NCBI GenBank assembly: GCA_046728075.1
Contig: JBKPDV010000032.1
Coordinates: 3,790 to 67,789, forward strand
DNA length: 64,000 nucleotides
From: Acidobacteriota bacterium
Lineage (GTDB): Bacteria; Acidobacteriota; Thermoanaerobaculia; UBA5066; Gp7-AA6
Direction of reading: 5' to 3'
The notes under the pieces are model-generated. The model worked only from the letters and a program-made list of their open reading frames with translations, ran no database searches and was not told the DNA's origin. This document shows, in pieces, positions 11,820 to 62,512 of the stretch (positions are counted from its first letter, which is position 1; each line of letters begins with the position of its first letter). Position numbers and translations under genes: made by a program.

Positions 11820-14501
11820 TCACTTCTTCAGCTCTGCGGTCCAGTTCAGAATGACCGTCACGGGTGAGGACTCGGCCCCCTCCGTCGGAGTGTTGACGAG
11901 AAAGCGCTTGCCATCGGCCGAAACGGTATAGGGAATTATGGGAGCGCCAAAGACCCGAGGCTCGAAAAGTGGTTGGGGCTGTCCGGCCTGGAAGGTGGAG
12001 TTCGCCTGCACCGAAACAGCCATGAGCTTTCGGTCGGCGGCGATGTAGAAGATCTCCTTTCCATCGCGCCGCCACCGCGGAAAGCTTCCGCCGTCCGTTG
12101 AAACCTGCCATTTGCCGCCCGGATTCGGAAAGGCCTGCACGTACACCTCTCTGCGCCCGGACTCGTTGGAGGAATAGGCCATCCATCGGCCGTCCGGGGA
12201 GAATTGGCCCTGACCTTCGTTGAACTCGGTCCGAAGAAACGGAACCGGTTTGCGATCGCCGAAAAGCGGCAAGACCCAAAGATCCGTTCCCGTCTTCGGA
12301 TCCTGGTCCTCGAAGGCAATGAACCGGCCGTCGGGAGACCAGTCCACGCTGTATTTTGCATTTTCGGATCCGAGCACCAGCTCCTCCCTGCCCGCCCCGG
12401 TCGAGATCTGTTGATACAAGCTGCTCGTGCCGTCTCGATCGGAGGCGAAGACAATTCGATCGCCGTCAGGCGACCAGACGGGAAACGCTTGATTGGACGA
12501 ACCGAATGTCAGTCGCGAGACGGTCGAGCGCGCGAGGTCGACCAGCCAGATATCGTCGGCCCCCGTCTGCGAATCGCGACGTTGCACCGCGACGCGCTTT
12601 CCATCCGGCGAGAGAGTCGGGCGCATGTACAAGCCGGGCCCGGCGGCCGATCCGATCCGGTTTCCCGCTCGATCGAACCAGACGAGCTCGCTCGTCGGCA
12701 GCCCGCCGACGCCTCCACTGCGATAGGCGAGCACGCCGTTGTCCGAGACAGTCAATGTATTCCGCCCGTTGGAGGGGTTGTGCGCCACGTCTTCCGCGAC
12801 GCGGATCGGCTCGCCTGTGAGCCGCAGCCGATTCGGATCGAACCGCTGAGCCATCAAGGTCCCCTGTTGCATGAAGAGGAGATAGCCCGGCGGCGTAAAC
12901 AAGGCCCTCACTTCCGTCTTGAGCACGAGCTTTGCGTCTGGGGAATCGAGCGAACGGACGTAAATGCCGCGGTTCTCCCGTAGGCCGCTCAAGACGAGAT
13001 AGAGGAAGTGGCGGCCGTCAGGCAGGAACTGAGGCCAGTAGTGGGCGGTTTCCCGCCGCCGTCGGTCGAGCGCAGTCAAGCTGGCCGATGGTCCGCCCGT
13101 CGCGGAAACACGAGTCAGCGCACTCTCCCGGTTCGGCGAGAAGACAATGACCCCCTCCCGGCTCCAGGCGCCGCCGTTGCCTGAAGGTGCGTCGCACAAT
13201 GTTTGAGGGGACCCGCCGGAAACGTCGATCCTCCTCAACTTTCCCTGCGCGAAAAAGCCGATGAAACGGCTGTCCGGAGACCAGAAGGGGAAGATGGCGC
13301 CTTCGGTTCCGGCCAGCTTACGCGCGGCGAGCGAATCGAGTGGGCGGATCCAGAGGTGTGTCTTCTGATCCGACGCCGTTGTGGTAAGGACCAAGTAACG
13401 GCCGTCCGGTGACACGGCAACCTGAGGGGCCGATGGCCCAAATGCAATCGTCGTCTCCTCCGGTGGGAAGACGAAGAAACGCATCGGCCGCGCCTCCACG
13501 GTTGTTTGTCGAAAATGAACGACCGCGAAAAAAATCGCGGCAAGCAGACAGACGCCCGCGACCACCCAGGCGACGCGCTCCCGGCTCTTGCGTCGGGCGA
13601 TCACCGGCGCCGGCAGGCCGGCTTGTGATCCTCCCTCGGCGATCCACTTGAGCTCCTCTGCGACGTCGTGGGTAGACTGCCAGCGCGCGTCCGGGTCCTT
13701 CGCGAGGCAGGTCTTGACGACTCGATCGAGGGCCGGAGGGCTCATCGGCTGGAGAGAGGAGATCGGCGGGGGATCCGAGGACATGATGGCGGAGATCAAC
13801 GAGGCCTGGCTCTTACCGCTGAAGGCCTTGTTCCCCGTCGCCATCTCGTAGAGCACCGCCCCCAGCGCGAAGATGTCCGTCCGTGCGTCCGCCTCGCTCC
13901 CCTCCAGCTGCTCGGGAGCCATGTACTGGACGGTGCCGAGAATCGTTCCCTCTCTCGTCAAGGGAGTGCTCCCCGCTGCCGTCGCGAGCGCGGTCAGGCT
14001 CGATTGGTTGGAGACTGGCGCCATCGCCTTCGCGAGGCCGAAGTCGAGAAGCTTGACGCCGGACTTCGTCAGCATGATGTTGCCGGGCTTCAGGTCCCGG
14101 TGGACGATCCCCTGGCGGTGCGCGCGATCGAGCGCGTCGGCAATCTCGATTCCATAACGTAACGTCTGGTCGAGAGGCAGCGGACTCTTCGCAAGACGAC
14201 CGGCCAGCGTCTCTCCCTCTAAATACTCCATGACGAGATACTCGACCCCGTCCTGATTGCCCACGTCATAGAGGGCGCAAATATGCGGGTGAGACAATGC
14301 AGATATTGTTTTCGCCTCCCGCTCGAAGCGCTGGCGGACCTCGGGAGAAGAAGAGAGATGGGAGGGAAGCACCTTGATCGCCACCGTCCTCTCCAGCCGG
14401 GTGTCCCGCGCCTTCCAAACCTCACCCATACCTCCGGCACCGAGGGGCGAGACGATCTCGTAAGGACCCAACCGAGCGCCCGCCGCGATCGTCATCTCCA
14501 C
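11820..14501 (-). CDS. Ser/Thr protein kinase with C-terminal TolB/PD40-like beta-propeller (subfamily A)
   Basis: It carries the kinase motifs GAGGMGEVWKARD, HRDLKPGN and DFGLAKA, then a TM segment and repeated 'SPDGR' PD40-type blades. The 5' 300 nt is near-identical to the genes at 40556 and 43339. Confidence 0.9.
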   Translation of the reverse strand: MEMTIAAGARLGPYEIVSPLGAGGMGEVWKARDTRLERTVAIKVLPSHLSSSPEVRQRFEREAKTISALSHPHICALYDVGNQDGVEYLVMEYLEGETLAGRLAKSPLPLDQTLRYGIEIADALDRAHRQGIVHRDLKPGNIMLTKSGVKLLDFGLAKAMAPVSNQSSLTALATAAGSTPLTREGTILGTVQYMAPEQLEGSEADARTDIFALGAVLYEMATGNKAFSGKSQASLISAIMSSDPPPISSLQPMSPPALDRVVKTCLAKDPDARWQSTHDVAEELKWIAEGGSQAGLPAPVIARRKSRERVAWVVAGVCLLAAIFFAVVHFRQTTVEARPMRFFVFPPEETTIAFGPSAPQVAVSPDGRYLVLTTTASDQKTHLWIRPLDSLAARKLAGTEGAIFPFWSPDSRFIGFFAQGKLRRIDVSGGSPQTLCDAPSGNGGAWSREGVIVFSPNRESALTRVSATGGPSASLTALDRRRRETAHYWPQFLPDGRHFLYLVLSGLRENRGIYVRSLDSPDAKLVLKTEVRALFTPPGYLLFMQQGTLMAQRFDPNRLRLTGEPIRVAEDVAHNPSNGRNTLTVSDNGVLAYRSGGVGGLPTSELVWFDRAGNRIGSAAGPGLYMRPTLSPDGKRVAVQRRDSQTGADDIWLVDLARSTVSRLTFGSSNQAFPVWSPDGDRIVFASDRDGTSSLYQQISTGAGREELVLGSENAKYSVDWSPDGRFIAFEDQDPKTGTDLWVLPLFGDRKPVPFLRTEFNEGQGQFSPDGRWMAYSSNESGRREVYVQAFPNPGGKWQVSTDGGSFPRWRRDGKEIFYIAADRKLMAVSVQANSTFQAGQPQPLFEPRVFGAPIIPYTVSADGKRFLVNTPTEGAESSPVTVILNWTAELKK

Positions 14502-14543
14502 TTCACCCGATCACACGATCGCACGGTTTCCTGATCACGGTTG
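14502..14543 (-). promoter_or_regulatory. Conserved kinase leader ('GATCGGGTGAAGTGGAG' + ATG) between GH127 stop and kinase start
   Basis: The same ATCGGGTGAAGTG(A/G)AG-ATG block precedes the kinases at 43189 and 57070, and a related catcgg(t/g)t repeat precedes the kinase at 46002. It is a 42-nt spacer. Confidence 0.35.
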
Positions 14544-40555: not shown

Positions 40556-43189
40556 TCATTTCCCTTTCTCGGGGGCCCATCCGACGACGACGGTGATCGG
40601 AAGGGCCGCGTCCTCGGGTCGGCGTGAGTTGACGACGAAGCGCTGGCCATCGGGCACCACGTCATAGTGGTTGCGGGTCTCGACCGTCGGAAAGATCCGC
40701 GTCTGGAAGAGGGCTCGCGGCGGGGAAGCTTCGAACGACGGATCGTTTCGAATTTCGACGGACATGATCTTGCGGTCCGGAGAGACATAGAACATCTCTT
40801 TGCCATCCCCGCGCCATCGCGGTTGCGTTCCGCCTCCAGCGGAAATCTGCCGGCGATCTTCCAACCCCGGAAAAGCTCGGACGTAGACCTCGCGGGCTCC
40901 CGATTCTTCCGACTCGTAGGCGAGCCAGTGTCCGTCCGGCGAGAAGCGCGCTCCCATCTCGTTGAACGGATCCTTCAAGAGTGGCCGGTTCGAGCCGGTT
41001 TGCAGGTCCCGCAGACCCACATCGAAGTGGAACGTGGGCCAATCCACCGTTTCATAGACGAGGTATCGGCCATCTCGAGACACGTCATCGAGGGGCCAGA
41101 AAGCGGGAAACCGAAACAACAACTTCTCTTTCTCCGCCGCGGCGGCATCCCGCACGTAGACTTCTCCCGTCGGATAGACCGAGTAGAGGATCCTTCGACC
41201 GTCTGGCATCCAGAGCGGCGAAGCGTCGGCCAGCGCGTTCTCGAAGGAGAAACGGGCGAAGCTTCCGCGCTCGAGGTCGATCAGCCAGATCGCGGATCCG
41301 CGCTCGTCGTTCCGCGCGACGGCAACCCGGCGTCCGTCGGGCGAGACCGCCGGCTCGTAGAACGCACCGGACGGACCGAGGGCGCGGATTTCCCGCCCCG
41401 CCCGATCGTAAAGGAGCAGCCGCGTCTGGCTCAAGCCGCCTGTCTGATAGGCGAGAACGCCGTTGGAAGAGGCGGTGAAGGCAGTCGCGAGCGTGGAAAT
41501 GCCGTCCCACCAGACGTCCCCGACGAGGGGAACCGCGTCCCCGGTCACGCGAAGGCCCTTAGGATCGAACGGCTGCGCAACCAGTCGGTCGCCCGTCCGA
41601 AAGAGCACGTGACCCGGAGGTGAATAGATCGCGCCAGAATCCGCGACCGCAATGCGCCGTAATTCCTTGGAGTCGAGAGACGCGGCGGAGATCCCGGTCG
41701 CGCTTCCCGTGCCGGCGATCGACAGATACAGGAAGTGGCGCCCGTCGGGAAGAAAACTCGGCCAGCGGAAGCTTTCGCCGCTCCGCGAGGCCAGGTGAGT
41801 GATCCGGCGAGACTCTCCCCCTGCCTCCGAGACGAACCGGATCTGCCCGCCCGTCTCCGTCGAAAAAACGATCGTGCCGGTCGAACCCCACGATCCTCCC
41901 CGCGGGCCGGTCGCGTCGCAAAGAATCTGCGGCGAACCACCGGAGACGTCGATTCGCTTGAGTTTCCCCTGCGCAAAGAAGCCGACCGCGTGCCCGTCGG
42001 GAGACCAGAACGGATAAGCCGCTCCCTCCGTTGCCGGCAGAGGCTGCGCTTGCGTCGAATCGAGCCGGCGCAGGTAGAGAAGATCCCGGCCGTCGGTCTC
42101 GGTCGCCACGAAAGCCAGCGTCCGCCCATCGGGCGAAAGGGCGAGCATTCCCTGGAGAGCCGCGCCGGCGGGTGGAAGAATCGTGAACTGGAGCTTTCCG
42201 AGAGAGAGACTTTGCGGCTGGTTCGACCGGGAGAAGAGAAGGCCGCCGACCACCAGAAGCAAGGCCGCCGCGACGATCCAGCCGGCCAAACCACGAGGCG
42301 CGCGCCGAACCGCCTCGGTACTGGGACCACCCCTGACGATCTCCTCGAGCTCGAGCGCGACATCCCGGGCGCTCTGCCACCGGCGCTCGGGGTCCTTGGC
42401 GAGACACCTCCGAACCGTGTGTTCGAGCGCCGGAGGATTCACCGGTTGGATGGCGGTGATCGACGCCGGCTCCTCCTTCATGATCGAGGAGATCAACGAG
42501 GCCTGGCTCGAGCCGGAAAATGCTTTCCGGCCCGTCGCCATCTCGTAGAGCGTCGCGCCGAAGGCGAAGATGTCGGTGCGAGCATCAGCGGGCTTGGCTT
42601 CCAACTGCTCCGGCGCCATGTACTGCAGCGTGCCCAGGATCGCTCCCTCTTGCGTCAGCGCTCGCTCGGTCGGCAAAGAAGTCACGCTCGTCGAGCCGGC
42701 CGGCGCGCTCACGGCGCGGGCCAGGCCGAAGTCGAGCAGCTTGACGCCCGACTTGGTCAACATGACGTTGCCGGGCTTCAAGTCCCGGTGCACGATGCCC
42801 TGCCGGTGCGCCACGTCCAGAGCGTCGGCGATCTCGATCCCGTATCGAAGCGTCTGCTCGAGCGGCAGCGCCCCTTTCATCAGTCGGTCCGCGAGCGTCT
42901 CCCCCTCCAGATATTCCATGACCAGATACTCGACGCCGTCCTGGTTGCCCACGTCGTAGAGGGCGCATATGTGAGGGTGTGACAATGCAGATATTGTTTT
43001 CGCCTCACGCTCGAAGCGCTGGCGAACTTCCGGCGAAGAAGAAAGATGCTGCGGCAGCACCTTGACGGCGACCGTCCGGTCGAGCCGCGTGTCTCGCGCC
43101 CGATAGACCTCCCCCATTCCGCCGGCGCCCAGCGGGGAGACGACTTCGTAGGGACCTAACAGGCTTCCAGCCGCAATCGTCATCTTCAC
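40556..43189 (-). CDS. Ser/Thr protein kinase with TolB/PD40-like beta-propeller (subfamily A)
   Basis: MKMTIAAGSLLGPYEVVSPLGAGGMGEVYRARD. Its first about 900 nt is highly similar to the 43339 and 11820 genes. It is a tandem paralog of the upstream gene. Confidence 0.9.
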   Translation of the reverse strand: MKMTIAAGSLLGPYEVVSPLGAGGMGEVYRARDTRLDRTVAVKVLPQHLSSSPEVRQRFEREAKTISALSHPHICALYDVGNQDGVEYLVMEYLEGETLADRLMKGALPLEQTLRYGIEIADALDVAHRQGIVHRDLKPGNVMLTKSGVKLLDFGLARAVSAPAGSTSVTSLPTERALTQEGAILGTLQYMAPEQLEAKPADARTDIFAFGATLYEMATGRKAFSGSSQASLISSIMKEEPASITAIQPVNPPALEHTVRRCLAKDPERRWQSARDVALELEEIVRGGPSTEAVRRAPRGLAGWIVAAALLLVVGGLLFSRSNQPQSLSLGKLQFTILPPAGAALQGMLALSPDGRTLAFVATETDGRDLLYLRRLDSTQAQPLPATEGAAYPFWSPDGHAVGFFAQGKLKRIDVSGGSPQILCDATGPRGGSWGSTGTIVFSTETGGQIRFVSEAGGESRRITHLASRSGESFRWPSFLPDGRHFLYLSIAGTGSATGISAASLDSKELRRIAVADSGAIYSPPGHVLFRTGDRLVAQPFDPKGLRVTGDAVPLVGDVWWDGISTLATAFTASSNGVLAYQTGGLSQTRLLLYDRAGREIRALGPSGAFYEPAVSPDGRRVAVARNDERGSAIWLIDLERGSFARFSFENALADASPLWMPDGRRILYSVYPTGEVYVRDAAAAEKEKLLFRFPAFWPLDDVSRDGRYLVYETVDWPTFHFDVGLRDLQTGSNRPLLKDPFNEMGARFSPDGHWLAYESEESGAREVYVRAFPGLEDRRQISAGGGTQPRWRGDGKEMFYVSPDRKIMSVEIRNDPSFEASPPRALFQTRIFPTVETRNHYDVVPDGQRFVVNSRRPEDAALPITVVVGWAPEKGK

Positions 43190-43198
43190 TTCACCCGA

Positions 43199-43303
43199 TT
43201 ACACGATCACCCGATGCGCGAAAGCACCGATTTCCCCCATGCCGCCAGCACTACGTGGAGAGAAAACCTCATAAGGTTCTAACCGGCTCCCGGCGGAGAT
43301 CAC
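43199..43303 (-). pseudogene. 34-codon in-frame remnant of a kinase N-terminus (GTG...TAA) between two kinase paralogs
   Basis: It translates to V I S A G S R L E P Y E V F S P R S A G G M G E I G A F A H R V I V *. It matches the kinase N-terminus 'TISAGSRLGPYEVLS.LGAGGMGE' and then runs into the conserved leader. Confidence 0.5.
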
Positions 43304-43338
43304 AAATCACCAATCACAAATAACAAATCCTTCGAGCG

Positions 43339-46002: not shown

Positions 46003-46087
46003 ATCGCCTCGCTCATTGAACCGATGAATCGATGGATGGATGAACCGATCACACCATCGCAACCGGTTCGATGATTCCAGATGGCGT

Positions 46088-49771: not shown

Positions 49772-52072
49772 CTACGCCGGAACGATCTTCTCGAGCAGCT
49801 TCGGAAAACGGGGATGCGCTCGCAGCGGATCGAAGGCGGCGCAGGTTCGGAACCACCAGGCGAGCGCGTTTCGCTCGTCGCAGCCGCGCTCCAGGCAGTC
49901 CAACGCCTCGGCCACGTTGCCCAGCGGAATATGGATGAACGCGAGGTGGAAAGGCGCGATGTACGAATCCACCGATCGCCGTTCGAGCTCTCGCAAGAGA
50001 TCGAGCGCTTCCGCCCGGCGTCCCGCCGCGGCGTACACTCCGGCGAGCTGCGCGAGGTAGAACGCCTGCCGCCTCCCGGTCCCTTCGGCCGCCTTTTCCA
50101 TCGAGGCGACCGCCTCCGCGTGTCGGCCGAGAAGCCGGCACGTTAGGCCCAGCCCCCAGGTCGGATAGAAAGCGTTGGGGTCGATGTGGAGCGCGCGGCG
50201 AAACTCCGCGGCGGCTTCCTCCATCCGGCGGGCGCCGAAGAACGCCCAGGCGACGTTGGCCTGCGCGTTGGCCGAGTGCGGCTCGAGATCCGCCGCACGT
50301 CGGGTGAGCTCGAGCGCCTCGTCGAAACGGTCGTTGAACGCGAGATTGAGCCCAAGCCACGAGTATCCGGCGGCGGCCCGGGGCGCCAACTCGATCGCGC
50401 GCCGGAGCTCTCGCTCCAGGCGGCCGAAATCCCAGCCGAAGTAGTGCTCGACCAAACCGAGCGAGACGTGGGCGTCGGCCGATTCGGGGTCGAGCTTGAG
50501 CGCCTTCTCGGCCGCGACGCGCGCCCGCTCGAACGCTTCCCGAGTGGAGATCCCGCCGTAGAAGCCGTAGATGCAGTAGGCGTCGGCCAGCCCCGTGTGC
50601 GCCTCGGCATAGGTCGGATCGATCGCGAGCGCCCGCTCGAATTCTTCGACGGCTTCGGGCGGCTCACGTCGGTTGAAGTGGTAGCGCCCCTTCAAATAGT
50701 GGTTGTACGCCTCGACGTCCGCGGTCCCCCGCGCCGACAGCCGCGCCTCTTCCGCGGGAAGCAACCGGACCTTGAGCGTCTCCGCGATCGCGCGTGCGAT
50801 CTCGTCCTGGACGGCGAAAACGTCTTCCATCTCGCGGTCGAATTTCTCGGACCAGAGGTGATAGCCGTCCGAGACGTCGATCAACTGAGCCGTGACCCGG
50901 AGCTTTCGCCCGGCCTGCCGGACGCTCCCTTCGAGCACGTTGCGGACCCCGAGCGCCGCGCCGATCTGGCGCACGTCTTCGTCGCGCCCCTTGAACGCGA
51001 ACGAAGAGGTGCGGGAAGTGACGCGAAGCGCGCGGATCGCCGAGAGCGCGTTGATGATCTCCTCCGTCATTCCGTCGCTGAAGTACTCGTTCTGCTGGTC
51101 CGGGCTCAAGTTGCGAAAAGGGAGGACCGCGACGGTGGCGGCAGAAGCGGCGGCACCGGAGCCCGGGCTTCCCGCCGGGCGCCCGGTTCCGTCGGAACGC
51201 GCGTGCGAACCCGCGCCGGCCTCGCGTTCCAGGACGCGCAGCGCGAAAGCGAGGTCCCTGGCCGACTGAAACCGCTCCTCGGGTCTCTTCTCGAGACAAT
51301 GGAGCACGAAATCTTCCAGCTCGGGCGCCACGGGTCGGTCCGGCCGAGAAAGGGAGGGAGGAGCATCCCGTATGACGGCGACGAGAGACTCGACGTCGCT
51401 GTCGCGCCGGAACGCGCGTTCGCCGGCCAGCATCTCGTAGAGAATCGCTCCGAAGGAGAAGAGATCGGCCCGGTGATCGGCGGGAGCGCCTCGAGCCTGT
51501 TCGGGAGACATGTAGCCCGCGGTGCCGACGATCCATCCGGGTTGGGTTCCTCCCGCAGTCGGCGCGTTCGCTTCCGTCGGCCCCGAGCCCGCCGGCCCGG
51601 ATGCCTTGGCCAGGCCGAAGTCGAGGATCTTCACCAGACCCTCGCGCGTCACGAAGACGTTCTCGGGCTTCAAGTCGCGGTGGACGATCCCTCTTTCGTG
51701 CGCGGCCACGAGCCCCTGCGCGATCTGCAAGGCGTAGTCGAGCGCCTTTCGCTGAGGGAGGGCAGTCGCGAGCTTCTCGAGCAGCGTCTCCCCCTCGAGA
51801 AGCTCCATGACTGCGTAGACGACGCCGCCGTCCCGGCCGAAATCATGGATCGCCAGGATGTTCGGATGCGAGAGCGCGGCGACCGACTTTGCCTCGCGCT
51901 CGAAACGCAAGAGCGCCTCGGCGTCGCCGGCCAGGTTCTGCGGCAACACCTTGACGGCGACGTATCGATTCAACCTCGTGTCCCGCGCCTTGTACACCTC
52001 TCCCATCCCGCCCGCGCCGAGCGGCGACAGGATTTCGTAGGGACCCAGACGCGAGCCGGCGGAGAGAGCCAT
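49772..52072 (-). CDS. Ser/Thr protein kinase with TolB_N-like domain and C-terminal TPR repeats (subfamily C)
   Basis: It has MALSAGSRLGPYEILSPLGAGGMGEVYKARDTRL, HRDLKPENVFV, 'VAVLPFRNLSPDQQNEYFSDGMTEEIINALSAIRALRVTSR', and then TPR repeats. Confidence 0.9.
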   Translation of the reverse strand: MALSAGSRLGPYEILSPLGAGGMGEVYKARDTRLNRYVAVKVLPQNLAGDAEALLRFEREAKSVAALSHPNILAIHDFGRDGGVVYAVMELLEGETLLEKLATALPQRKALDYALQIAQGLVAAHERGIVHRDLKPENVFVTREGLVKILDFGLAKASGPAGSGPTEANAPTAGGTQPGWIVGTAGYMSPEQARGAPADHRADLFSFGAILYEMLAGERAFRRDSDVESLVAVIRDAPPSLSRPDRPVAPELEDFVLHCLEKRPEERFQSARDLAFALRVLEREAGAGSHARSDGTGRPAGSPGSGAAASAATVAVLPFRNLSPDQQNEYFSDGMTEEIINALSAIRALRVTSRTSSFAFKGRDEDVRQIGAALGVRNVLEGSVRQAGRKLRVTAQLIDVSDGYHLWSEKFDREMEDVFAVQDEIARAIAETLKVRLLPAEEARLSARGTADVEAYNHYLKGRYHFNRREPPEAVEEFERALAIDPTYAEAHTGLADAYCIYGFYGGISTREAFERARVAAEKALKLDPESADAHVSLGLVEHYFGWDFGRLERELRRAIELAPRAAAGYSWLGLNLAFNDRFDEALELTRRAADLEPHSANAQANVAWAFFGARRMEEAAAEFRRALHIDPNAFYPTWGLGLTCRLLGRHAEAVASMEKAAEGTGRRQAFYLAQLAGVYAAAGRRAEALDLLRELERRSVDSYIAPFHLAFIHIPLGNVAEALDCLERGCDERNALAWWFRTCAAFDPLRAHPRFPKLLEKIVPA

Positions 52073-54391: not shown

Positions 54392-57070
54392 TCACTTGAG
54401 GTCTGCCACCCAGATGTCCCCTTCGGTCGCCGTTTCCGTATAGGTGATCCAACGATTGTCCTGGGTGATTCCCAGACTGAGACCGATTCCATAACCCCCG
54501 ATGGAAAAGAGCAGTTGCGACCGCTTCGTCGAAAGATCCACGAGCGAAACCCCACGGGCGTCGCGCACGAGGAGCCGCCGGCTGTCGGCGAGCCAAATAG
54601 GGATTTTCCACAGTCGGCTTGGTCCCGCATCGAGACGCTCGAATCGGTTCTCGGGAATCGAATAGACGACGACGGAATCGACTGAGCCATCCGGGTTCGC
54701 GGCGATGCCCGCGAGCGAGCGGCCGTCGCGGGACCAGGAGAGGGGCCAGAACTGTTGGGGCCCGCCGATCGGCGGCATCGAATGTGCGGGATGCGGGAAA
54801 CCGCCCGATCCTACGTCGATCGAGTACCAGCCGCCGTCTCCGCCGACTGCCTTGGTGACGATCTGCTTTCCGTCGGGCGACCAGACGGGAAAGTTTGCGG
54901 ATCCGGTCACGGCCGCTAGCCGCTCGAGTCCGCTTCCGTCGGGCCGGATCGTCCAGAGCCCATAGGCGCCGCTACGATCCGAGTAGAACGCGATCGTCTT
55001 TCCGTCGGGCGACCAGCTCGGCCCCCGATCCCGAAAGGCATCGTCGGTCAACCGGCGAAACTCCTTTCCATCCATCCGCGATACGAAGAGATCTTCCTGG
55101 CCTCCCGTCTCAATGAAGGCGACCCACTGGCCATCGGGCGAAACCTGATGGTCGCGAATTGGCTGGTTCGTCTTCAAAACGGGAAGAGGAGCTCCGACGA
55201 TCGTGCCTAAAGCGGCATCGAATCCAATCTTCAGGAGCGTCGAGCGCCAGTCGAGGCTGGCAAAGGCGAGCCGTCGCCCGTCGCGCGAGAAGCTCAACTG
55301 TCCGCTCCAGAGCGATGGCGTCGTCATCGGTTCAGGCTCCCCGAGCACGCGTCCGGATCTTTCGTCGATCCGCACGCGCCAGAGGTTCATCGTGCCTCCT
55401 CGATTGCTCGAGAAGTAGAGAAACCTGCCGTCCGGTGACCAGGTCGGGCTCCAGTCGAGGGGCGCATCGTTGGTGATGTCGATGCCCGGGCCGGTCAGCT
55501 CCGAACCGTCGGCGGCAACGGTCCAGAGGTCTCGCTGTCCGGTCGAGCCTCGCAATCCCCAGTAGGCGATCCGGTGGCCGTGCGGAGACCAGCTCGGCTG
55601 CATGCAGTCGCCCGCCCGGGAGACTTCCCGTCGGCGGCCCGTCTCGAGATCGACGGCCCAGAGCCCGCCAACCCGGCTCGCTCGGTCGGTCGGAAAGAAG
55701 AAGGAGCCGCTGGCGACGGCGATCTCGCGTCCGTCGGGCGACCAGGTGGGGTTGTAGCCGAAGTCGGTGACGCGCTTGACGGACTCTCCCGTGGAGCCCA
55801 TGACGAAGATTCCACCGCCGGCTCGCTCCGAGCGAAACGCGATGCGCTCGCCATCCGGAGAAAACACCGGCTGCCAATCGTCAACCGTCGAGTCCGGCGT
55901 GAGCGCAACCGGATTTCGCCCTCCGACTCGAAGCATGTAGAGGCTTTTGCGCCCCGCCTCGTCACGGACATAGACGACGTTCTTTCCATCCGGAGAGAGC
56001 GTCGGCGAGGACTCGACGCCGGGAGCGTCCGTGAGTTGGAGGAACGAGACCGGCCGGGATGCACGCTCGACGGAAGGGTCGCCGATGCGAGTGCGCCGAC
56101 CCGCGACGAATGCGGCCGCTGCTACAGCGGCGATCGCCAGAATCGTCAACGGAACGAGGATGCCGGTTCGGCGCCGCTTCCGCAAAGGCTCGACGGCCGC
56201 GGCCGGGCCGCTCGGCACCGCGCCTCCGATGACTGTTTCGAGGGCGAACGCGAGATCGTGAGCCGTGTCGAACCGCTCCTCCGGCCGTTTCTCGAGACAA
56301 TGGCGGAGAATTCTCTCGATCGGCGCGGCGAATCGGCCCGAAGGCTCCGCCAGCTCCGGCGGATCTTTCTGCGCGATCGCCGCCATCGTCTCGGCCGCCG
56401 ACTCGCCGCGAAAGGCGCGCTCGCCCGTGAGCATCTCGTAGAGAACGCATCCGAGTGAGAAGATGTCCGAGCGCGCGTCGGCGGGCTTGCCTCGAACTTG
56501 TTCAGGCGACATGTAGCCCACAGTCCCCATGACAGTGCCCGGCTCGGTCGAAGCGGCGACGGTCGGTGACTGCGTGTTCTCGAGGTCGCGCGCGACGACC
56601 TTGGCGAGCCCGAAGTCCAGGATCTTCACGCGCCCTTGGAAGGTCACGAAAAGGTTCTCCGGCTTCAGATCGCGATGGACGATTCCCTTCTCGTGCGCCG
56701 CCCCGAGCCCCTGCGCAATCTGCAGCGCGTATTCGAGCGCACGGCGTTGAGGAATCGGCCCCTCGGCCAACCGCTGGCGCAGCGTCTCGCCCGTCAACAG
56801 CTCCGTCGCCGCGTAGGTGATGCCGCCGTCGCTGCCGAGATCGTAGATGCCGAGGATGTTCGGATGCGAGAGCGCGGCGACCGCTTTCGCCTCCCGCTCG
56901 AAGCGCTCGAGGGCCTCGGGATCCGAGGCGAGTTTTTGCGGCAGAACCTTGATCGCAACATCCCGGTCCAGCCGCGTATCGCGGGCTTTGTAGACCTCGC
57001 CCATTCCACCCGCCCCCAGGGACGACAAGATTTCGTAGGGTCCTAAGCGAGTTCCTAGCAAGGCCGCCAT
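54392..57070 (-). CDS. Ser/Thr protein kinase with TolB/PD40-like beta-propeller (subfamily C)
   Basis: It has the ATG at 57070 (MAALLGTRLGPYEILSSLGAGGMGEVYKARDTRLDRDVAIKVLP), HRDLKPENLFV, DFGLAKV and PD40 blades (SPDGK/SPDGR xN). Confidence 0.9.
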   Translation of the reverse strand: MAALLGTRLGPYEILSSLGAGGMGEVYKARDTRLDRDVAIKVLPQKLASDPEALERFEREAKAVAALSHPNILGIYDLGSDGGITYAATELLTGETLRQRLAEGPIPQRRALEYALQIAQGLGAAHEKGIVHRDLKPENLFVTFQGRVKILDFGLAKVVARDLENTQSPTVAASTEPGTVMGTVGYMSPEQVRGKPADARSDIFSLGCVLYEMLTGERAFRGESAAETMAAIAQKDPPELAEPSGRFAAPIERILRHCLEKRPEERFDTAHDLAFALETVIGGAVPSGPAAAVEPLRKRRRTGILVPLTILAIAAVAAAAFVAGRRTRIGDPSVERASRPVSFLQLTDAPGVESSPTLSPDGKNVVYVRDEAGRKSLYMLRVGGRNPVALTPDSTVDDWQPVFSPDGERIAFRSERAGGGIFVMGSTGESVKRVTDFGYNPTWSPDGREIAVASGSFFFPTDRASRVGGLWAVDLETGRRREVSRAGDCMQPSWSPHGHRIAYWGLRGSTGQRDLWTVAADGSELTGPGIDITNDAPLDWSPTWSPDGRFLYFSSNRGGTMNLWRVRIDERSGRVLGEPEPMTTPSLWSGQLSFSRDGRRLAFASLDWRSTLLKIGFDAALGTIVGAPLPVLKTNQPIRDHQVSPDGQWVAFIETGGQEDLFVSRMDGKEFRRLTDDAFRDRGPSWSPDGKTIAFYSDRSGAYGLWTIRPDGSGLERLAAVTGSANFPVWSPDGKQIVTKAVGGDGGWYSIDVGSGGFPHPAHSMPPIGGPQQFWPLSWSRDGRSLAGIAANPDGSVDSVVVYSIPENRFERLDAGPSRLWKIPIWLADSRRLLVRDARGVSLVDLSTKRSQLLFSIGGYGIGLSLGITQDNRWITYTETATEGDIWVADLK

Positions 57071-57072
57071 CT

Positions 57073-57201
57073 TCACTTCACCCGATGAACCGATGATCCA
57101 ATGACCCGATGCGCGAAGCGCCAGACCTCCCCCATTCCTCCGGCGCCGAGCGGCGAGAGGACCTCGTCGGGTCCCAGGCGGGTCCCCGCCGAAAGATTCA
57201 C
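57073..57201 (-). pseudogene. 42-codon kinase N-terminus remnant / uORF linking two kinase genes (GTG overlaps upstream stop as GTGA; its TGA lies 2 nt before the next ATG)
   Basis: It translates to V N L S A G T R L G P D E V L S P L G A G G M G E V W R F A H R V I G S S V H R V K *. It shares the 'FAHRVI' leader-encoded tail with the 43199 fragment. Confidence 0.5.
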
Positions 57202-59894
57202 GGCCTGGATCCGGCGAGATGTTTTCCGAAGTTGAGCAAAACGTCCAAACGAGGCGTCTGGTTCGTCTCCTTCTGGCGGACGAGGACCACGAATTGCTTG
57301 CCGTCGGCGGAGACGTCGTAGATGTCGTTCCACTCGCTCGGTGCCGGCCGATCGATTTTGACGACTCGATGCGGCTCTCCGGGCGTGAAGGTCGGCTCTT
57401 CGCGAATCGGCACGGCAAAGATCTCGTCGTTCCAAACGAAGAAGAGCTCCTTGCCGTCGTGGGACCAGCGCGGCGCGGTGCCGCCCGCTCTGGAGATTTG
57501 CCATCGGCCCGCCAGACTCGGATACGCCTGAACATAAATCTGCGGCCCGGGCTCGTATTCGCCCGTGTAAGCGACCCATCGCCCGTTGGGCGAGATCATG
57601 CCTCGATGCTCGGCGCCGGGCGTCGCGATGAAGCCTCGCGCCTTGCGGTCTCCCGAGAGCGGAATGAGGAAAATGTCGGCGCGACTCGGAAGGCCGCTCA
57701 GAGTCACCAAGAGTGCGGAACCGTCGGGTGCGAAAGAGTCCTCAGTGATCGGTACGCGATAGGGGGACTTCCAGAGCACCTCGGCGGCCGCGCGGCCATC
57801 GGCGCGCTGGCGAAGAACGGCCTCTCCGGTAGGCGGCGAAAAAACGACGCTTTGGCCGTCCGGAGTCCAGCAGGGGGAAAGCGCCTGCCCGGTGGACGTC
57901 AGCTGGAAGTTGCTGGTATGAGCGAGGTCGGCAATCCAGATGTCGCTGCGCGCACCTCCTCCCGGTCCCTCCGCGTACGCCAGTTTCTGACCATCGGGAG
58001 AAAGAGAAAGACCCGTGTAGAGTCCCGGCGGGATTCCCGTCGGCTGGCGCCGGCCGCTGCGATCGATCCAGACGATTTCGTTCGACCCTTGCGCGGAGTA
58101 ACCGACGGCGTACACGAAGACTCCGTTCCTCGAGACGTCGAAGTAGGACACTCCGCTGCGCGGATCGCCGCTGACTCCTTGCAGAACCGGCACTGCCGGG
58201 CCTTGCACCTCGGCTGTCTTCGGATCGAAAGGCGCCGCGAGCACGTCGCCGCGACGAGCCAGGAGGAGACGGTCCGGCTGCGAATAACGAGCGAGGCTCG
58301 CGCCGCGATAGACGCCATGTCTCTTTCCGGTCGCAAGCGACACGGCGTCGATGCGTGAATCATCGTAGTCGCCGGGCTTGTCTTCGGTGCCGACGGTGAA
58401 GAGAACCCACTTGCCCTCGACGACCTCCGGCCACCGGTGACTGCGCTCGCGGGTGGTGGTATCGATCGTCGTCAGCGGACGCGCCTCTCCTCCCGCGGCG
58501 GGAATCCGCAGAATCGGCGAGTTCACCGTCGGAGAGAAAACGATCGACCCGTCTTCTCCCCACGCCGCGCCGCGGCTGCGAGGCACGGATGCCAGGATCA
58601 CCGGAGTGCCGCCCCGGATCGCGGTCTTCTTCAACTTGTCTCCGGCGACGAATGCCAACCACTCGCCGTCGGGAGAAAAGAAGGGGTCGGCTCCCCCCTC
58701 GGTCCCAGGCAATGGCTCCGCCGTTTCCCGTGAGAAATCTCGGACGAAGATGCGGTGCTCCTCTCCGGTCCGACCTCGAAACGCAATCCGCCGGCCGTCC
58801 GGAGAGATCGCCAGGATCTGCACCTGATCCCCGACAGTTGGATCGAGGCTGATGTTTTCCGGCAGAGCAACGGATAGGTGGATCAAGTCCTCGCCGCCGC
58901 CTGGCGAGCGCCTCTGAAGAAGAAGAATCGCGACGAGGGCAATGACGAGAGCGGCGGCGATGATCCACGGAATCCACGTCGCTCGTCTCGATCCCGCTCC
59001 TTTCACCGCCATCTTGGTTTCGGCGGATCGAGCCGGCGCGCGCAGCGACTCTTCGATTTCCAGGCGCGCGTCGGCGATGTCGTGAAGCCGGCTCTTGGGG
59101 TCGCGCTCCAGACATCGGTGGAGCAGACGCCTCACCCCGTCGGGTGTCTCCGACGGGAGCTCGCGGAAATCGATTTCCTGCCTCAGCACCGCGGCAAGCA
59201 CGTCCGAGACCGTCTCTCCCTCGAAGAGCCGACGCCCCGTCAACATCTCCCAAAGAATCACTCCGAAGGCCCAGATGTCGGCGCGCTTGTCCACTGCGCG
59301 GCCGCGAGCCTGCTCGGCGGACATGTAAGCCGCGGTGCCGATCACGATTCCCGCTTGCGTGGCCGCGGCCGTGATCGTGGGCGAAGTCGAGACGTCCGGC
59401 GAGGAACCCTCCTTGACCAGCGCCTTCGCGAGACCGAAATCGAGCACCTTGACCTGACCGTCGGGCGTGAGCTTGACGTTGGCCGGCTTCAAGTCCCGGT
59501 GCACGATTCCACGCTCGTGCGCCGCCTCGAGCGCCTCCGCGATCTGGCGCGCGATGCCGAGAGCCTCTTCGATCGGAAGCGCGCCTTTGGCCAGCCGCTC
59601 CGCGAGGGTCTCGCCTTCGACGAGTTCCAAGACGAGTGTCTCCAGGCCCTCCGACTCCTCCAGGCCGTAGATCGCGGCAATATGAGGGTGATTCAATGAA
59701 GCGAGCAGCTGCGCCTCGCGCCGAAAGCGCGCGAGCCTCTCGGCATCCGCTGCGAACGCCTCGGGGAGCACCTTGATGGCGACGTCCCGGCCGAGCCTCG
59801 GGTCCTTGGCCCGCCACACTTCGCCCATACCGCCTGTGCCGAGCGGGGAAAGGATCTCGTAAGGCCCGAGGCGGGTACCTGGCGAGAGGCTCAT
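57198..59894 (-). CDS. Ser/Thr protein kinase with TolB/PD40-like beta-propeller (subfamily D)
   Basis: It has the ATG at 59894 (MSLSPGTRLGPYEILSPLGTGGMGEVWRAKDPRLGRDVAIKVLP), HRDLKPANVKL and DFGLAKA. Its start overlaps the upstream stop (ATGA). Confidence 0.9.
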   Translation of the reverse strand: MSLSPGTRLGPYEILSPLGTGGMGEVWRAKDPRLGRDVAIKVLPEAFAADAERLARFRREAQLLASLNHPHIAAIYGLEESEGLETLVLELVEGETLAERLAKGALPIEEALGIARQIAEALEAAHERGIVHRDLKPANVKLTPDGQVKVLDFGLAKALVKEGSSPDVSTSPTITAAATQAGIVIGTAAYMSAEQARGRAVDKRADIWAFGVILWEMLTGRRLFEGETVSDVLAAVLRQEIDFRELPSETPDGVRRLLHRCLERDPKSRLHDIADARLEIEESLRAPARSAETKMAVKGAGSRRATWIPWIIAAALVIALVAILLLQRRSPGGGEDLIHLSVALPENISLDPTVGDQVQILAISPDGRRIAFRGRTGEEHRIFVRDFSRETAEPLPGTEGGADPFFSPDGEWLAFVAGDKLKKTAIRGGTPVILASVPRSRGAAWGEDGSIVFSPTVNSPILRIPAAGGEARPLTTIDTTTRERSHRWPEVVEGKWVLFTVGTEDKPGDYDDSRIDAVSLATGKRHGVYRGASLARYSQPDRLLLARRGDVLAAPFDPKTAEVQGPAVPVLQGVSGDPRSGVSYFDVSRNGVFVYAVGYSAQGSNEIVWIDRSGRRQPTGIPPGLYTGLSLSPDGQKLAYAEGPGGGARSDIWIADLAHTSNFQLTSTGQALSPCWTPDGQSVVFSPPTGEAVLRQRADGRAAAEVLWKSPYRVPITEDSFAPDGSALLVTLSGLPSRADIFLIPLSGDRKARGFIATPGAEHRGMISPNGRWVAYTGEYEPGPQIYVQAYPSLAGRWQISRAGGTAPRWSHDGKELFFVWNDEIFAVPIREEPTFTPGEPHRVVKIDRPAPSEWNDIYDVSADGKQFVVLVRQKETNQTPRLDVLLNFGKHLAGSRP

Positions 59895-62512
59895 GGGTTG
59901 GGACCGAAGAGGCGCGACGAGATCGTCGGTTTTCGCCAGGAGCCGAGGTTCTCGACGAGGTACAGCGTGTTCAGGTACTGCTGGCACGAGTAAGCGTAGG
60001 ACTTCCCGTCGGGTGTCATGGCGACGGCGCGCACGGACATGCCTGCGGTGTCGCTCGGGATGAGCTCCTTCCACAGCGTGGCGCGGCCGCTTTCGACATC
60101 GATCTTCTCGACCCTTGCCGGGATCTCGCCCAGTCGGAAAACATAGAAGCCCTTGCCGTCCGCCGCCCACTGAACGGGCACGAAGAGCCCGGCAAGGCCC
60201 GGGACCGGGCGCGGCTGCCCTCCGTCGACGGGGCAGAGCACGATCTGATTCTCGGGCGAGCGAGCAACGACCAGTCGCCCGTCCGGCGAAAGCGCGTTGC
60301 CCCCGGCGACGAGCTCGTACCCTTCCGGAGCCACGCGCCTCGGTTCATGCCCATCCGGATCGACGACGAAGATGCCGGTCTTCCCGCCTTTCGCCTGGCC
60401 CCAGACCAGAACTCTCTTGCCGTCGCGGAACCAGCTCGCCCATCGGATCGTCTCGAAGAATCCGTCGCTCACCGGTCTCGGCCCTCCGGCCGCTGTCGGC
60501 TGCGCCAGGAGCTTTCCCCGTTGGCTCGCAAGCACCCAGGCGCCGTCGGGCGAGAGGCCGTGCGCCGAGCCGTCTCCCAATCGAATCGGAGGCGAGCTGT
60601 CCCCTTTTGCGATCCAAACGCCTTGCGCGCCTTGTGAAAGGACTTCTCGAAAGACGAGCAGCCTGCCGTCTTGCGAGAGGTCGACCAGCCGCAGGTCCAT
60701 TCGGCTCACGAGAGGAGATTCGGTCTTCTGACCCGAGAGCAACCCGCGCGTCCATTCCTGCCAGTCGAAGAGGGTGATCAGGGCCCTCCCGTCCCGGGAG
60801 ACATCGTTGAGATCGGCAGTCAACGGTCCACGTTCGAGGAGGCGCTGCCGGCCCGAGAGATCCGCTGCCATAATCGGCGTCTCCTCCCCTCCCCCGGAGA
60901 TGCTTGCGGGGAACCAGATCTCTTCGCCGTCGGGTGACCACGTGGAAGCCCAGAAGTCGGGGCGAACGGGACCGACCACGGCCTTCCGGCTCTGAGAGTC
61001 AACGACCGACAGCGAGTAACCGTTGAAGGGCAGACCCTCGTAGAAGGCGATCCGATTGCCGCGGGGTGAGACGCGAGCCGACGTAATCCAGGCCGGGCTC
61101 TCATAGGCCAGTCGGCCGGGCGGATACTCCAGCCGCTGCCGCGGTCCGGCTTGCCGGACGACGGCAAGGTCCTTTCCTTCGGGATCCCAATCGGCATACC
61201 GCACTTCACGCAGGACCTCGCGAGGGGATCCGCCGGAAAGCGGCACGAGCGCGAGCGTCCCGCGGCGGAAGTAGAGGTTGTAGTCGATTTTCGGTTCGAG
61301 CAGGATGGCCATCTCACCGCGCGATGAAACCGCGAGAAGCGATGCGCTCGGCAGGGGAAGCGCCGTCGATTCGCGGCCTCCCGGGCGGGTCGAGAAGATC
61401 TTAGACGGCGCCCCGTCCCAGTCGGCGCTGTAGAGAATTGTCTGGCCGTCCGGGGCGAAGCGGGCGTTGCTGATGAAGCCGCGCCGGTAAGTGAGGCGCT
61501 GGTAAGTTGGAGAAAGGCGGCTCCTGCCGCCGGCGAACCAGGACCCTGCGAGAAGTCCGGCCGCGAGCAATGCCAGTCCGGCCGCGACGGCCATTGCCGC
61601 GCGGACCCGACGAGGCGAGTCTGTCGCCGTCACTCGCGCCCCGCCGCTCGTTGTCGGAAGACCCGACAGCGCCTCGATGGCGAAGGCGATGTCGCTCGAG
61701 GACTGGAACCTTCGCTCGGGATTCTTCTCGAGGCAGTGGCGGAGGATGCGCTCGAGGCCCGGGCTGATGTTCTCGTTGGTGACGGAGAGGTCCGGGGGCT
61801 CCTCCCTCAAAATCGCGGCCATCGTCTCGCCGGCCGAATCGGCGTGGAAAGCGCGCTTGCCCGAGAGCATCTCGTAGAAGATCGCTCCGAACGAGAAGAT
61901 GTCGCTCCTCGCGTCGGCCGGCCTGCCCTTGACCTGCTCGGGGGACATGTAGCCGAGCGTGCCCATCACGACGCCGGGCTCGGTTCCGGGCGTGACGGTC
62001 GGAAGGTTCGTCGCGCTGCCGGATTGCCCGACCTGCGTCAGCTTCGCCAATCCGAAGTCGAGGATCTTGACGCGGCCGTCCTTCGTGACGAAGAGGTTCT
62101 CGGGCTTCAAATCCCGATGGACGATTCCCTTGTCATGCGCCGCCGCGAGGCCCTGGGTGATCTGCAGCGCATAGTCGATCGCCTTGCGCGGCGAGAAGCG
62201 GCCTGCCGAAAGCTCCACGCGCAAGGTTTCGCCCTCGAGCAATTCCTGGACGACATAGGGAGCGTTGTCGTGCATCCCGATGTCGTAGACGGCGGTGATG
62301 TTGGGGTGATTGAGCGCGCCCGCCGCCTGGGCCTCCTGCTCGAAGCGCCGGAGACGATCCGGATCCGTCGAGAAGGAGACGGGCAGCACCTTGATCGCAA
62401 CGTCACGCTTCAGCCGCTCATCCCGCGCCCGATACACCTCCCCCATCCCACCTGCGCCCAGGGGACTCAGCACCTCATAAGGCCCAAGACGGCTTCCTGT
62501 CGCGATGGTCAT
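59891..62512 (-). CDS. Ser/Thr protein kinase with TolB/PD40-like beta-propeller (subfamily B)
   Basis: It has MTIATGSRLGPYEVLSPLGAGGMGEVYRARDERLKRDVAIKVLP, HRDLKPENLFV and DFGLAKLTQ. Its ATG overlaps the stop of the upstream gene (ATGA). Confidence 0.9.
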   Translation of the reverse strand: MTIATGSRLGPYEVLSPLGAGGMGEVYRARDERLKRDVAIKVLPVSFSTDPDRLRRFEQEAQAAGALNHPNITAVYDIGMHDNAPYVVQELLEGETLRVELSAGRFSPRKAIDYALQITQGLAAAHDKGIVHRDLKPENLFVTKDGRVKILDFGLAKLTQVGQSGSATNLPTVTPGTEPGVVMGTLGYMSPEQVKGRPADARSDIFSFGAIFYEMLSGKRAFHADSAGETMAAILREEPPDLSVTNENISPGLERILRHCLEKNPERRFQSSSDIAFAIEALSGLPTTSGGARVTATDSPRRVRAAMAVAAGLALLAAGLLAGSWFAGGRSRLSPTYQRLTYRRGFISNARFAPDGQTILYSADWDGAPSKIFSTRPGGRESTALPLPSASLLAVSSRGEMAILLEPKIDYNLYFRRGTLALVPLSGGSPREVLREVRYADWDPEGKDLAVVRQAGPRQRLEYPPGRLAYESPAWITSARVSPRGNRIAFYEGLPFNGYSLSVVDSQSRKAVVGPVRPDFWASTWSPDGEEIWFPASISGGGEETPIMAADLSGRQRLLERGPLTADLNDVSRDGRALITLFDWQEWTRGLLSGQKTESPLVSRMDLRLVDLSQDGRLLVFREVLSQGAQGVWIAKGDSSPPIRLGDGSAHGLSPDGAWVLASQRGKLLAQPTAAGGPRPVSDGFFETIRWASWFRDGKRVLVWGQAKGGKTGIFVVDPDGHEPRRVAPEGYELVAGGNALSPDGRLVVARSPENQIVLCPVDGGQPRPVPGLAGLFVPVQWAADGKGFYVFRLGEIPARVEKIDVESGRATLWKELIPSDTAGMSVRAVAMTPDGKSYAYSCQQYLNTLYLVENLGSWRKPTISSRLFGPNP

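Follow-up and report, generated by a model that had tools for sequence, protein, structure and literature searches.

Comparison with related loci makes it quite probable that the two short ORFs F57 and F43, each of which precedes a full-length Ser/Thr kinase gene in the 64,000-nucleotide stretch of Acidobacteriota DNA analyzed here (the window), are the orphaned original 5' ends of kinase genes, separated from the rest of these genes by recombination among paralogs. As judged from sequence alignments, such stubs are positionally homologous to intact gene starts, are associated with a conserved leader that supplies the start of the following kinase gene, and are decaying.

Results

Kinase genes and stub ORFs of the window

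The window has a G+C content of 65% and carries ten full-length Ser/Thr kinase paralogs, in which Pkinase is combined with a PD40 beta-propeller or with TPR repeats (Table 1). The ATG of the K59 gene overlaps the stop codon of the preceding kinase gene, 59891-62512 (K62), by 4 nt, and the GTG of F57 overlaps the TGA of K59 in the same manner (GTGA). Between K57 and K43, the kinases that follow F57 and F43, identity is 51% within the kinase domain and 21% outside it, with 76% between the N-termini flanking the leader; for K57 and the kinase of the related locus L005, the corresponding values in and outside the kinase domain are 65% and 27%. Scans for sigma70 promoters and terminators around F57 and F43 gave nothing convincing.

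The translations of F57 and F43 correspond to the N-terminal ~26 residues of the neighboring Ser/Thr kinases, up to and including the glycine loop (G-loop), and both frames run on into a common junction and leader before their stop codons, which lie 2 nt (F57) and 15 nt (F43) from the real ATG. At the DNA level, a 78-nt nhmmer profile of the starts of the full kinases matched F57 with E=2.9e-15 and F43 with E=8.1e-09, and an analogous profile of the next 150 nt of these kinases detected no post-G-loop homology adjoining either stub, so that the resemblance is far above chance and breaks off at the G-loop. The earlier note, which was made from the letters of the window alone, had described two GTG frames with a kinase N-terminus ahead of full kinases, entering a common leader and stopping 2-15 nt before the real ATG, and this description was confirmed.

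Table 1 Features of the window (positions counted from the first letter of the 64,000-nt stretch)
Feature	Position	Strand	Description or basis
F57 ORF	57201..57073	minus	GTG start, 42 codons, TGA; reads VNLSAGTRLGPDEVLSPLGAGGMGEVWRFAHRVIGSSVHRVK up to the stop
F57 stub, probable orphaned kinase 5' end, codons 1-27 through the G-loop	57121..57201	minus	nhmmer; comparison with L036/L037
F57/K57 junction (TGGCGC-TTCGCGCA) and leader	57071..57120	minus	units CATCGGGT/CATTGGAT/CATCGGTT/CATCGGGT, then GAAGTGAAG
K57, full-length Ser/Thr kinase, Pkinase + PD40 beta-propeller	54392..57070	minus	starts at the ATG of the leader
K59, full-length kinase upstream of F57	57198..59894	minus	stop codon overlaps the F57 start
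F43 ORF	43303..43199	minus	GTG start, 34 codons, TAA; reads VISAGSRLEPYEVFSPRSAGGMGEIGAFAHRVIV up to the stop
F43 stub, probable kinase 5' end, more decayed than F57	43226..43303	minus	alignment, nhmmer
F43/K43 junction (GGTGCT-TTCGCGCA) and leader	43184..43225	minus	units CATCGGGT/GATCGTGT/AATCGGGT, then GAAGTGAAG
K43, full-length kinase, Pkinase + PD40, downstream of F43	40556..43183	minus	
AT-rich degenerate repeat GATTTGTTATTTGTGATTGGTGATTT	43304-43338	minus	read from the sequence, between the K45 stop and F43
F47, third, shorter kinase 5' stub, ~18 codons	47123-47175	minus	nhmmer DNA profile
Same leader without stub	14496..14543	minus	upstream of kinase 11820-14495 (K14), after a GH127 gene
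Diverged octamer-type leader without stub	46003..46060	minus	GATCGGTT/CATCCATC/CATCGATT/CATCGGTT, upstream of kinase 43339-46002 (K45)
Full kinases, first five	8908-11478, 11820-14495, 31833-34406, 40556-43183, 43339-46002		listed coordinates
Full kinases, last five	47173-49716, 49772-52072, 54392-57070, 57198-59894, 59891-62512		listed coordinates

The kinase-like parts of F57 and F43 are 66% identical to each other, and counted from the real ATG, F57 is in frame 2 and F43 in frame 0. F43 begins 33 nt from the K45 stop codon and carries changes at invariant positions (G10E, G19S, and V26I) and, besides these, L18R and W/Y27G. The stretch between the K45 stop and F43 is AT-rich, which is unusual for this window, and the degenerate repeat in it looks like a decayed octamer leader of the F43 stub. 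The start of the third stub, F47, has decayed to CTG, overlapping the TGA of the kinase gene 47173-49716; F47 reads LSLSAAGRLGPYEIPSPL..., ends short of the G-loop, and has no leader behind it. After F47, a plus-strand gene (~46218-47072) with a canonical AGGAGGG Shine-Dalgarno (SD) sequence interrupts the kinase array. The earlier note had overlooked F47, together with the GTGA overlap, the differing frames, and the stub-free leader at 11820-14495.

With 42 and 34 amino acids and subdomain I only, the two stub ORFs do not qualify as Hanks-type kinases (Pfam PF00069), for which a complete catalytic domain comprises the G-loop, the VAIK lysine, the HRD catalytic loop, and DFG; the full-length genes flanking the stubs do. 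Two further assignments were rejected. A stub is not a recent duplicate of its own downstream N-terminus, as the two are 69-76% identical, like any pair of paralogs. A 3' remainder of a split kinase beyond K57 or K43 was unsupported as well, and a plus-strand ORF follows K43. Two genes follow K57 in the JGI calls, the first without a Pfam match and the second running off the contig end.

It should also be mentioned that public annotation has placed the starts of the JGI 3300041966 proteins P0001, a 100% identical match, and P0121, and that of the L038 gene 12855, at the Met inside GGMGEV, so that 22 N-terminal codons are lost (870 instead of 892 aa and 876 instead of 898 aa); genes with a 4-nt overlap or with a stub ahead of them are affected in this way.

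Leader and junction

The leader is ~50 nt long and is composed of 8-nt SD-like units (S-ATCGG-K-T; two to five per leader across loci), ending in GAAGTGAAG-ATG. The units carry TGA in rotating frames, and the K57 leader holds both GGGTGA, the putative SD sequence, and the TGA that closes the stub ORF just before the ATG. The junction 14-mer TTCGCGCATCGGGT is identical in all 14 positions between F57/K57 (57104-57117) and F43/K43 (43209-43222), both on the minus strand, and the leader-end 19-mer ATCGGGTGAAGTGAAGATG is identical in 19 of 19 positions between K57 and K43, with 0 such matches expected in shuffles; the 14-mer is also nearly identical in three of the related loci described below (L005, group B, and L032). 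Since the leader is identical in 33 of 33 positions and the coding DNA on either side in 66-76%, neutral debris is an inadequate explanation for the leader, which is under constraint or has been recently homogenized. The motif ATCGGKTSA occurs nine times in the window against 1.3 expected, with eight of the nine occurrences inside four kinase leaders, and octamer clusters in related sequence (about 300 kb) were found only upstream of kinases and in a single orientation.

Pairing energies were computed with the standard bacterial 16S 3' tail, which may differ from that of this organism, and on this assumption, GGGUGA, located 6-7 nt before AUG, pairs at -8.4 kcal/mol, and the full unit GGGUGAUC pairs at -11.1, compared to -13.1 for AGGAGGUG. 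From these energies, the leader looks like a ribosome-binding region made of SD-like repeats. No match to the stub/leader region was obtained in Rfam at the gathering threshold (one chance-level match on the opposite strand under permissive settings), and RNA folding of stub plus leader was no better than that of shuffles (z +0.5, +0.2, -0.3, +1.2). Breakpoints cluster right after GARGTC, and kinase codons 27-29 (TAT CGG GCG) correspond to one leader unit, which suggests microhomology at the breakpoints.

Related loci outside the window

Searching a metagenome contig collection for the exact junction pattern (G-loop codons + N4-7 + TTCGCGCA) gave 0 matches. The 19-mer, searched in one genome per species, gave 20 matches, among which only L005 and L011 are credible homologues; L013 is uncertain, L017 lies (by eye) in an HPRT-like coding sequence, and the rest look like chance. 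L005, an Acidobacteriota MAG, has the same order as the window, that is, leader, stub, junction, leader, and full kinase, with a junction 1 nt shorter and the frame for the FAHRVI tail of the stub lost. The L005 stub lies 95 nt from a non-kinase gene; matching the consensus perfectly and having a leader and an ATG of its own, it is either young or maintained. At L011:3320-3405 (Acidobacteriales MAG JAICWB010000182.1), ATCGGGTGAAGTGAAGATG is situated in the rpsL-rpsG spacer with inverted ATCGGGTS arrays on either side, and judging from this locus, the kinase leader may represent one half of a palindrome of the REP/MITE type.

When the leader end followed by kinase N-terminal codons was used as the pattern, 12 metagenome contigs with three locus types were obtained. 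In group A, the stub starts with an ATG overlapping the TGA of a PIN-type toxin gene, and GAGGTC runs directly into the octamers; in group B, it starts with a GTG overlapping the TGA of a different PIN gene, and its junction, TGCGCTTCGCG, is 1 nt shorter than that of the window; in group C, the leader is present without a stub, as it is at L032. L038:12689-12780 contains a 13-codon stub (VTRRSRLGPYD) overlapping the stop codon of a K59 orthologue and followed later by a full kinase; the spacer after this stub is homologous to the leader variant of L032 (GATCCGCCTTCGCC..AAGGCT..), and the stop of the stub ORF overlaps the real ATG. The JGI contig 3300041966 has a 193-nt spacing identical to that of the window. 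Further copies, which the earlier note had proposed to look for, are F47 in the window and the stubs at L005, in groups A and B, and at L038. Leaderless stubs of other lengths, with frameshifts or stops, are located at L023:15355-15570 and L030:893-1283, in addition to F47. That of L023 (GCA_039933215.1) is a ~70-codon kinase pseudogene in which the frame is shifted and invariant residues are degenerate; it overlaps the upstream kinase by GTGA, and the next gene is small and unrelated.

Group A comprises two haplotypes of one kinase (L024, L026, L029, and L030 vs L028, L034, and L035). Among the seven group A contigs reaching past the breakpoint, four have a 275-nt frameshifting deletion beginning right after the G-loop codons of the main kinase, and in the group A kinase copy of L035, a frameshift and an inversion reveal a rearrangement farther downstream. 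PIN-toxin/antitoxin pairs interleave with kinase genes and fragments (L030:9-688 and 1324-2036; L038:9324-9985; L033/L035), and the kinase starts overlap PIN stop codons in several relatives.

Intact counterparts of the stubs

The stubs are truncated and homologous to the 5' part of functional family members, and relatives carry an intact gene at the homologous position, L036 and L037 for F57 and L035 for the group B stub of L033; this comparison covers F57 and the group B module. Over 487 nt of the antitoxin/PIN genes, the distal part of L035 shows 93% identity to the group B locus of L033, of which it is an allele. The TGA of the L035 PIN gene overlaps the GTG of an uninterrupted kinase, the start of which is 97% identical to the first 75 nt of the L033 stub, and both differences between the two strike invariant residues (RLGPYE to RLSLYE). 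Right after GGGATGGGGGAG, L033 has an extra 130-nt block consisting of the junction, four octamers, GAAGTGAAG, ATG, and codons 1-25. Beyond this block, a 60-nt patch is only 70% identical to L035, with all 18 differences synonymous, and the identity is then ~91%; this is the signature of a paralog-copied tract, and the patch looks like one acquired from another paralog.

In L036 and L037, the orthologues of K59 (76-77% aa) are directly followed by an intact kinase with a GTGA overlap. F57 agrees with the starts of these kinases in 58-60 of 81 nt and with the N-terminus of K57 in 52 of 81, which points to F57 as the original start of a gene once coupled to K59 and subsequently orphaned. In similarity to L021k/L023, F57 and the K57 N-terminus are equal (47-48 vs 45-47 of 63 nt). 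The orthologues of K57 itself in L021, L022, L023, L036, and L037 (84/74, 78/70, ~69%) have neither stub nor leader. Another product of recombination is apparent in the hybrid kinase L036:5141-7804: compared with L037:3624-8656, it has the N-terminus of the L037 TPR-kinase (67/81) and the body of the third L037 kinase (91% aa), so an unequal crossover at the G-loop segment, around GEVYRARD, has deleted a whole paralog. The earlier note had offered, as its second choice, that the short frames are footprints of unequal crossing-over at the segment coding for GAGGMGEV, and the pairs L036/L037 and L035/L033 support this idea.

Association of stubs with the leader and decay of stubs

Of the 43 distinct full-length kinase starts for which the upstream sequence was long enough, eight bear the leader; a stub is located directly upstream of five of these eight and of 0/35 leaderless starts (p=6e-5), although this association is inflated by the ascertainment of some loci via the leader pattern. 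Distant paralogs carry an identical junction and leader, and K57 orthologues carry neither, so that the stub and leader module is not inherited with the gene behind it and has moved among paralogs and genomes.

Deviations at 15 family-invariant positions were found in 9 of 75 cases in the leader-associated stubs vs 15 of 630 in the full genes (odds ratio 5.6, p=4e-4; a conservative count with register shifts excluded), which corresponds to relaxed selective constraint. Moreover, the group A stub contains an internal +1/-1 frameshift pair (GPLRDLVPLG), a 3-nt indel distinguishes near-identical group A strains, and L029 has a frame-changing deletion of 53 nt. The frame of the stub ORF relative to the real ATG is 2 in F57, 0 in F43, and 1 in L005 and groups A and B. 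In all 8 stub variants, including the one with the 53-nt deletion, the distance from the stop to the real ATG is between -4 and +15 nt, and this termination is automatic, because GGGTGATC units with a period of 8 and GGGTGAAGTGAAG place TGA in successive frames. Synonymous changes dominate between F57 and the L005 stub, as would be expected if each stub had been cut from a different functional gene. Neither the peptide nor the frame of the stubs thus appears to be selected, and the stubs are decaying.

Discussion

Proposed origin of the stubs

Kinase paralogs of these Acidobacteriota lie in tandem arrays, frequently with 4-nt stop/start overlaps. The best-conserved DNA of the family is its first ~80 nt (MxxxxGxRLGPYE...GAGGMGEV), which would offer a patch of homology that can be carried from gene to gene. 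By recombination at this patch or immediately behind it, a gene would come to be divided after its first 26 codons by a ~130-nt module, in which the junction is followed by 8-nt units (two to five), GAAGTGAAG, ATG, and a second set of codons 1-26. The underlying event may have been an insertion or a deletion, and two routes can be envisaged: partial tandem duplication of the leader and codons 1-26, with presumed later spread by gene conversion among paralogs, or unequal crossover with a gene already carrying the module. The kinase would then be made from the ATG of the module, with GGGTGA 6-7 nt upstream as the likely ribosome-binding site, and the stub would be left where it was, starting at the stop codon of the upstream gene, and be translated incidentally at most. 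The stub differs from case to case, as if crossovers or conversion tracts ended within codons 1-26.

A bolder version of this scheme, which we consider unlikely, would make the ~130-nt unit a self-propagating 5'-replacement cassette, spread by gene conversion and acting as a natural bicistronic coupler. Bordered on the left by the own codons 1-26 of any kinase and on the right by kinase sequence, such a cassette would be copied into other paralogs; it would split its target yet keep it expressed, the stub ending in the leader and the ribosomes restarting at the cassette ATG.

Alternative explanations

Some role in translation has to be weighed against the reading of the stubs as gene remnants. 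The open stub could act, irrespective of its peptide, as a relay that passes ribosomes from the upstream stop to the real ATG; termination-reinitiation would then replace the ancestral 4-nt overlap, as in a bicistronic leader cistron with an internal SD. This is mechanistically plausible, since the stubs end near the ATG and several of them (F57, groups A and B, and L038) start on the upstream stop codon (GTGA/ATGA). The predicted SD pairing of GGGUGA falls inside the stub ORF, and no sigma70-like promoter was predicted between the upstream gene and the stub. Translational coupling works best when stop and start codons are close together (PMC12548453), and the gaps found here are 2 nt for F57, 15 nt for F43, and -4 to +7 nt elsewhere. 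However, a near-ATG stop that arises from TGA in successive frames needs no selection, the same leader occurs without a stub at K14, L032, and K45, the F43 and L005 stubs are too far from the preceding genes (33 and 95 nt) to be coupled upstream, and orthologues manage without stubs, so that we regard the relay as unlikely. In such a peptide-independent form, the coupling device suggested by the earlier note would accord with the position of the ORF ends, which follows automatically from the TGA of the leader units. As for a regulatory uORF or leader peptide, the amino acids of which would matter as a G-loop mimic or through the FAHRVI tail, the open frames of both window copies with GGMGE kept and the mostly synonymous differences between F57 and the L005 stub can be cited in its favor, and the earlier note had deduced selection from the retention of the frame in two copies diverged at the DNA level. 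This conclusion was not upheld: the tail is in a different frame in L005 and group B and is not conserved, the frameshift pair and the strain indels of group A as well as the 5.6-fold excess of changes at invariant residues indicate decay, the K57 orthologues are stub-free, and attenuator or riboswitch features were not found (z -0.3 to +1.2, no Rfam match). A selected peptide is, on this evidence, very improbable.

The remaining alternatives concern the leader and the integrity of the sequences. If the leader were a small mobile element or REP/MITE-like palindrome, or half of one, bearing an outward ribosome-binding site and ATG and splitting the gene on arrival, then the discrete common junction in four unrelated kinase contexts, the stronger conservation of the leader than of the coding DNA alongside, and the 19-mer between inverted arrays in the rpsL-rpsG spacer of L011 would all be accounted for. 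Yet L011 is the single non-kinase example found and the only palindromic case, octamer clusters in the about 300 kb occur only upstream of kinases and in one orientation, the kinase loci have no terminal inverted repeats or target-site duplications, and insertion alone would give no second copy of codons 1-26, all of which makes this origin quite unlikely. The repeat units also invite the idea of a phase-variable contingency locus, in which gain or loss of an 8-nt unit would toggle between a stop of the stub ORF and an in-frame fusion to the kinase; the unit number does vary by locus (2-5), and each unit shifts the frame (8 mod 3 = 2), with frame 0 giving a fusion if no stop intervenes. It can hardly be correct, given that unit number and leader length are constant in eight group A and three group B contigs from different samples, that the units are imperfect repeats, and that F43, the sole case in frame 0, has a TAA. 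Chimeric assembly at the conserved G-loop k-mer is the most improbable explanation of all, with scarcely any weight: metagenome assemblers can mis-join paralogs, and the L036 hybrid and the second group A haplotype are conceivable joins, but the stub-leader junction does not lie at a common k-mer, and the structures recur in independent samples and assemblies (three group B contigs, eight group A contigs, and JGI 3300041966).

Implications and comparison with known systems

As matters stand, the stubs are an instructive but ordinary product of paralog recombination. They show that the very large kinase arrays of soil Acidobacteriota are still reshuffling, with the G-loop-coding 5' segment as the recombination handle at which paralogs are created, deleted, and hybridized. 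For annotation, kinase-like mini-ORFs in such arrays should be read as gene remnants, and attention should be paid to public gene calls, which often start these kinases 22 codons late. If both gene-conversion spread and termination-reinitiation were true, the module would be an unusual family-specific expression device, and the cassette would be a selfish or domesticated element driven by gene conversion within one protein family.

The stubs resemble the gene remnants of tandem arrays in their truncated conserved 5' end, in the break at the edge of the most conserved DNA, in the intact gene at the same position in relatives, and in their relaxed constraint. Unlike such remnants, most of them are tied to one leader, which supplies a ribosome-binding site, an ATG, and replacement codons, so that the interrupted kinase gene would stay functional, and one and the same junction is seen in distant paralogs and across genomes. 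With coupled cistrons and bicistronic (BCD) leaders, they share the short ORF, the SD sequence in its 3' end, and the stop codon a few nucleotides from the main start, and the overlap of the stub start with the stop of the preceding gene is that of cistrons coupled by 4-nt overlaps; the difference is that a dedicated leader cistron is replaced here by a gene fragment in decay. The short G+C-rich units, with a palindromic version in L011, are reminiscent of REP, BOX, and Correia-type repeats, which can carry or alter expression signals, but the array at the kinase loci is unidirectional, occurs only upstream of kinase paralogs, and has neither terminal inverted repeats nor target-site duplications.

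Large acidobacterial genomes, for example, that of Candidatus Solibacter usitatus, contain expanded Ser/Thr kinase families (PMC3174227), and the kinases of the window are like the Solibacter ones in the fusion of Pkinase to PD40/TolB-like beta-propellers or TPR and in the many paralogs. The work on Solibacter deals with ancient whole-gene duplication and divergence, and stubs, leaders, and 5'-end recombination are not described there (PMC3174227). Expansion of the kinase family and gene remnants left by unequal crossover or gene conversion are already known, and what is somewhat new is the binding of such remnants, in distant paralogs and genomes, to a specific conserved leader of SD-like repeats that brings replacement codons with it.
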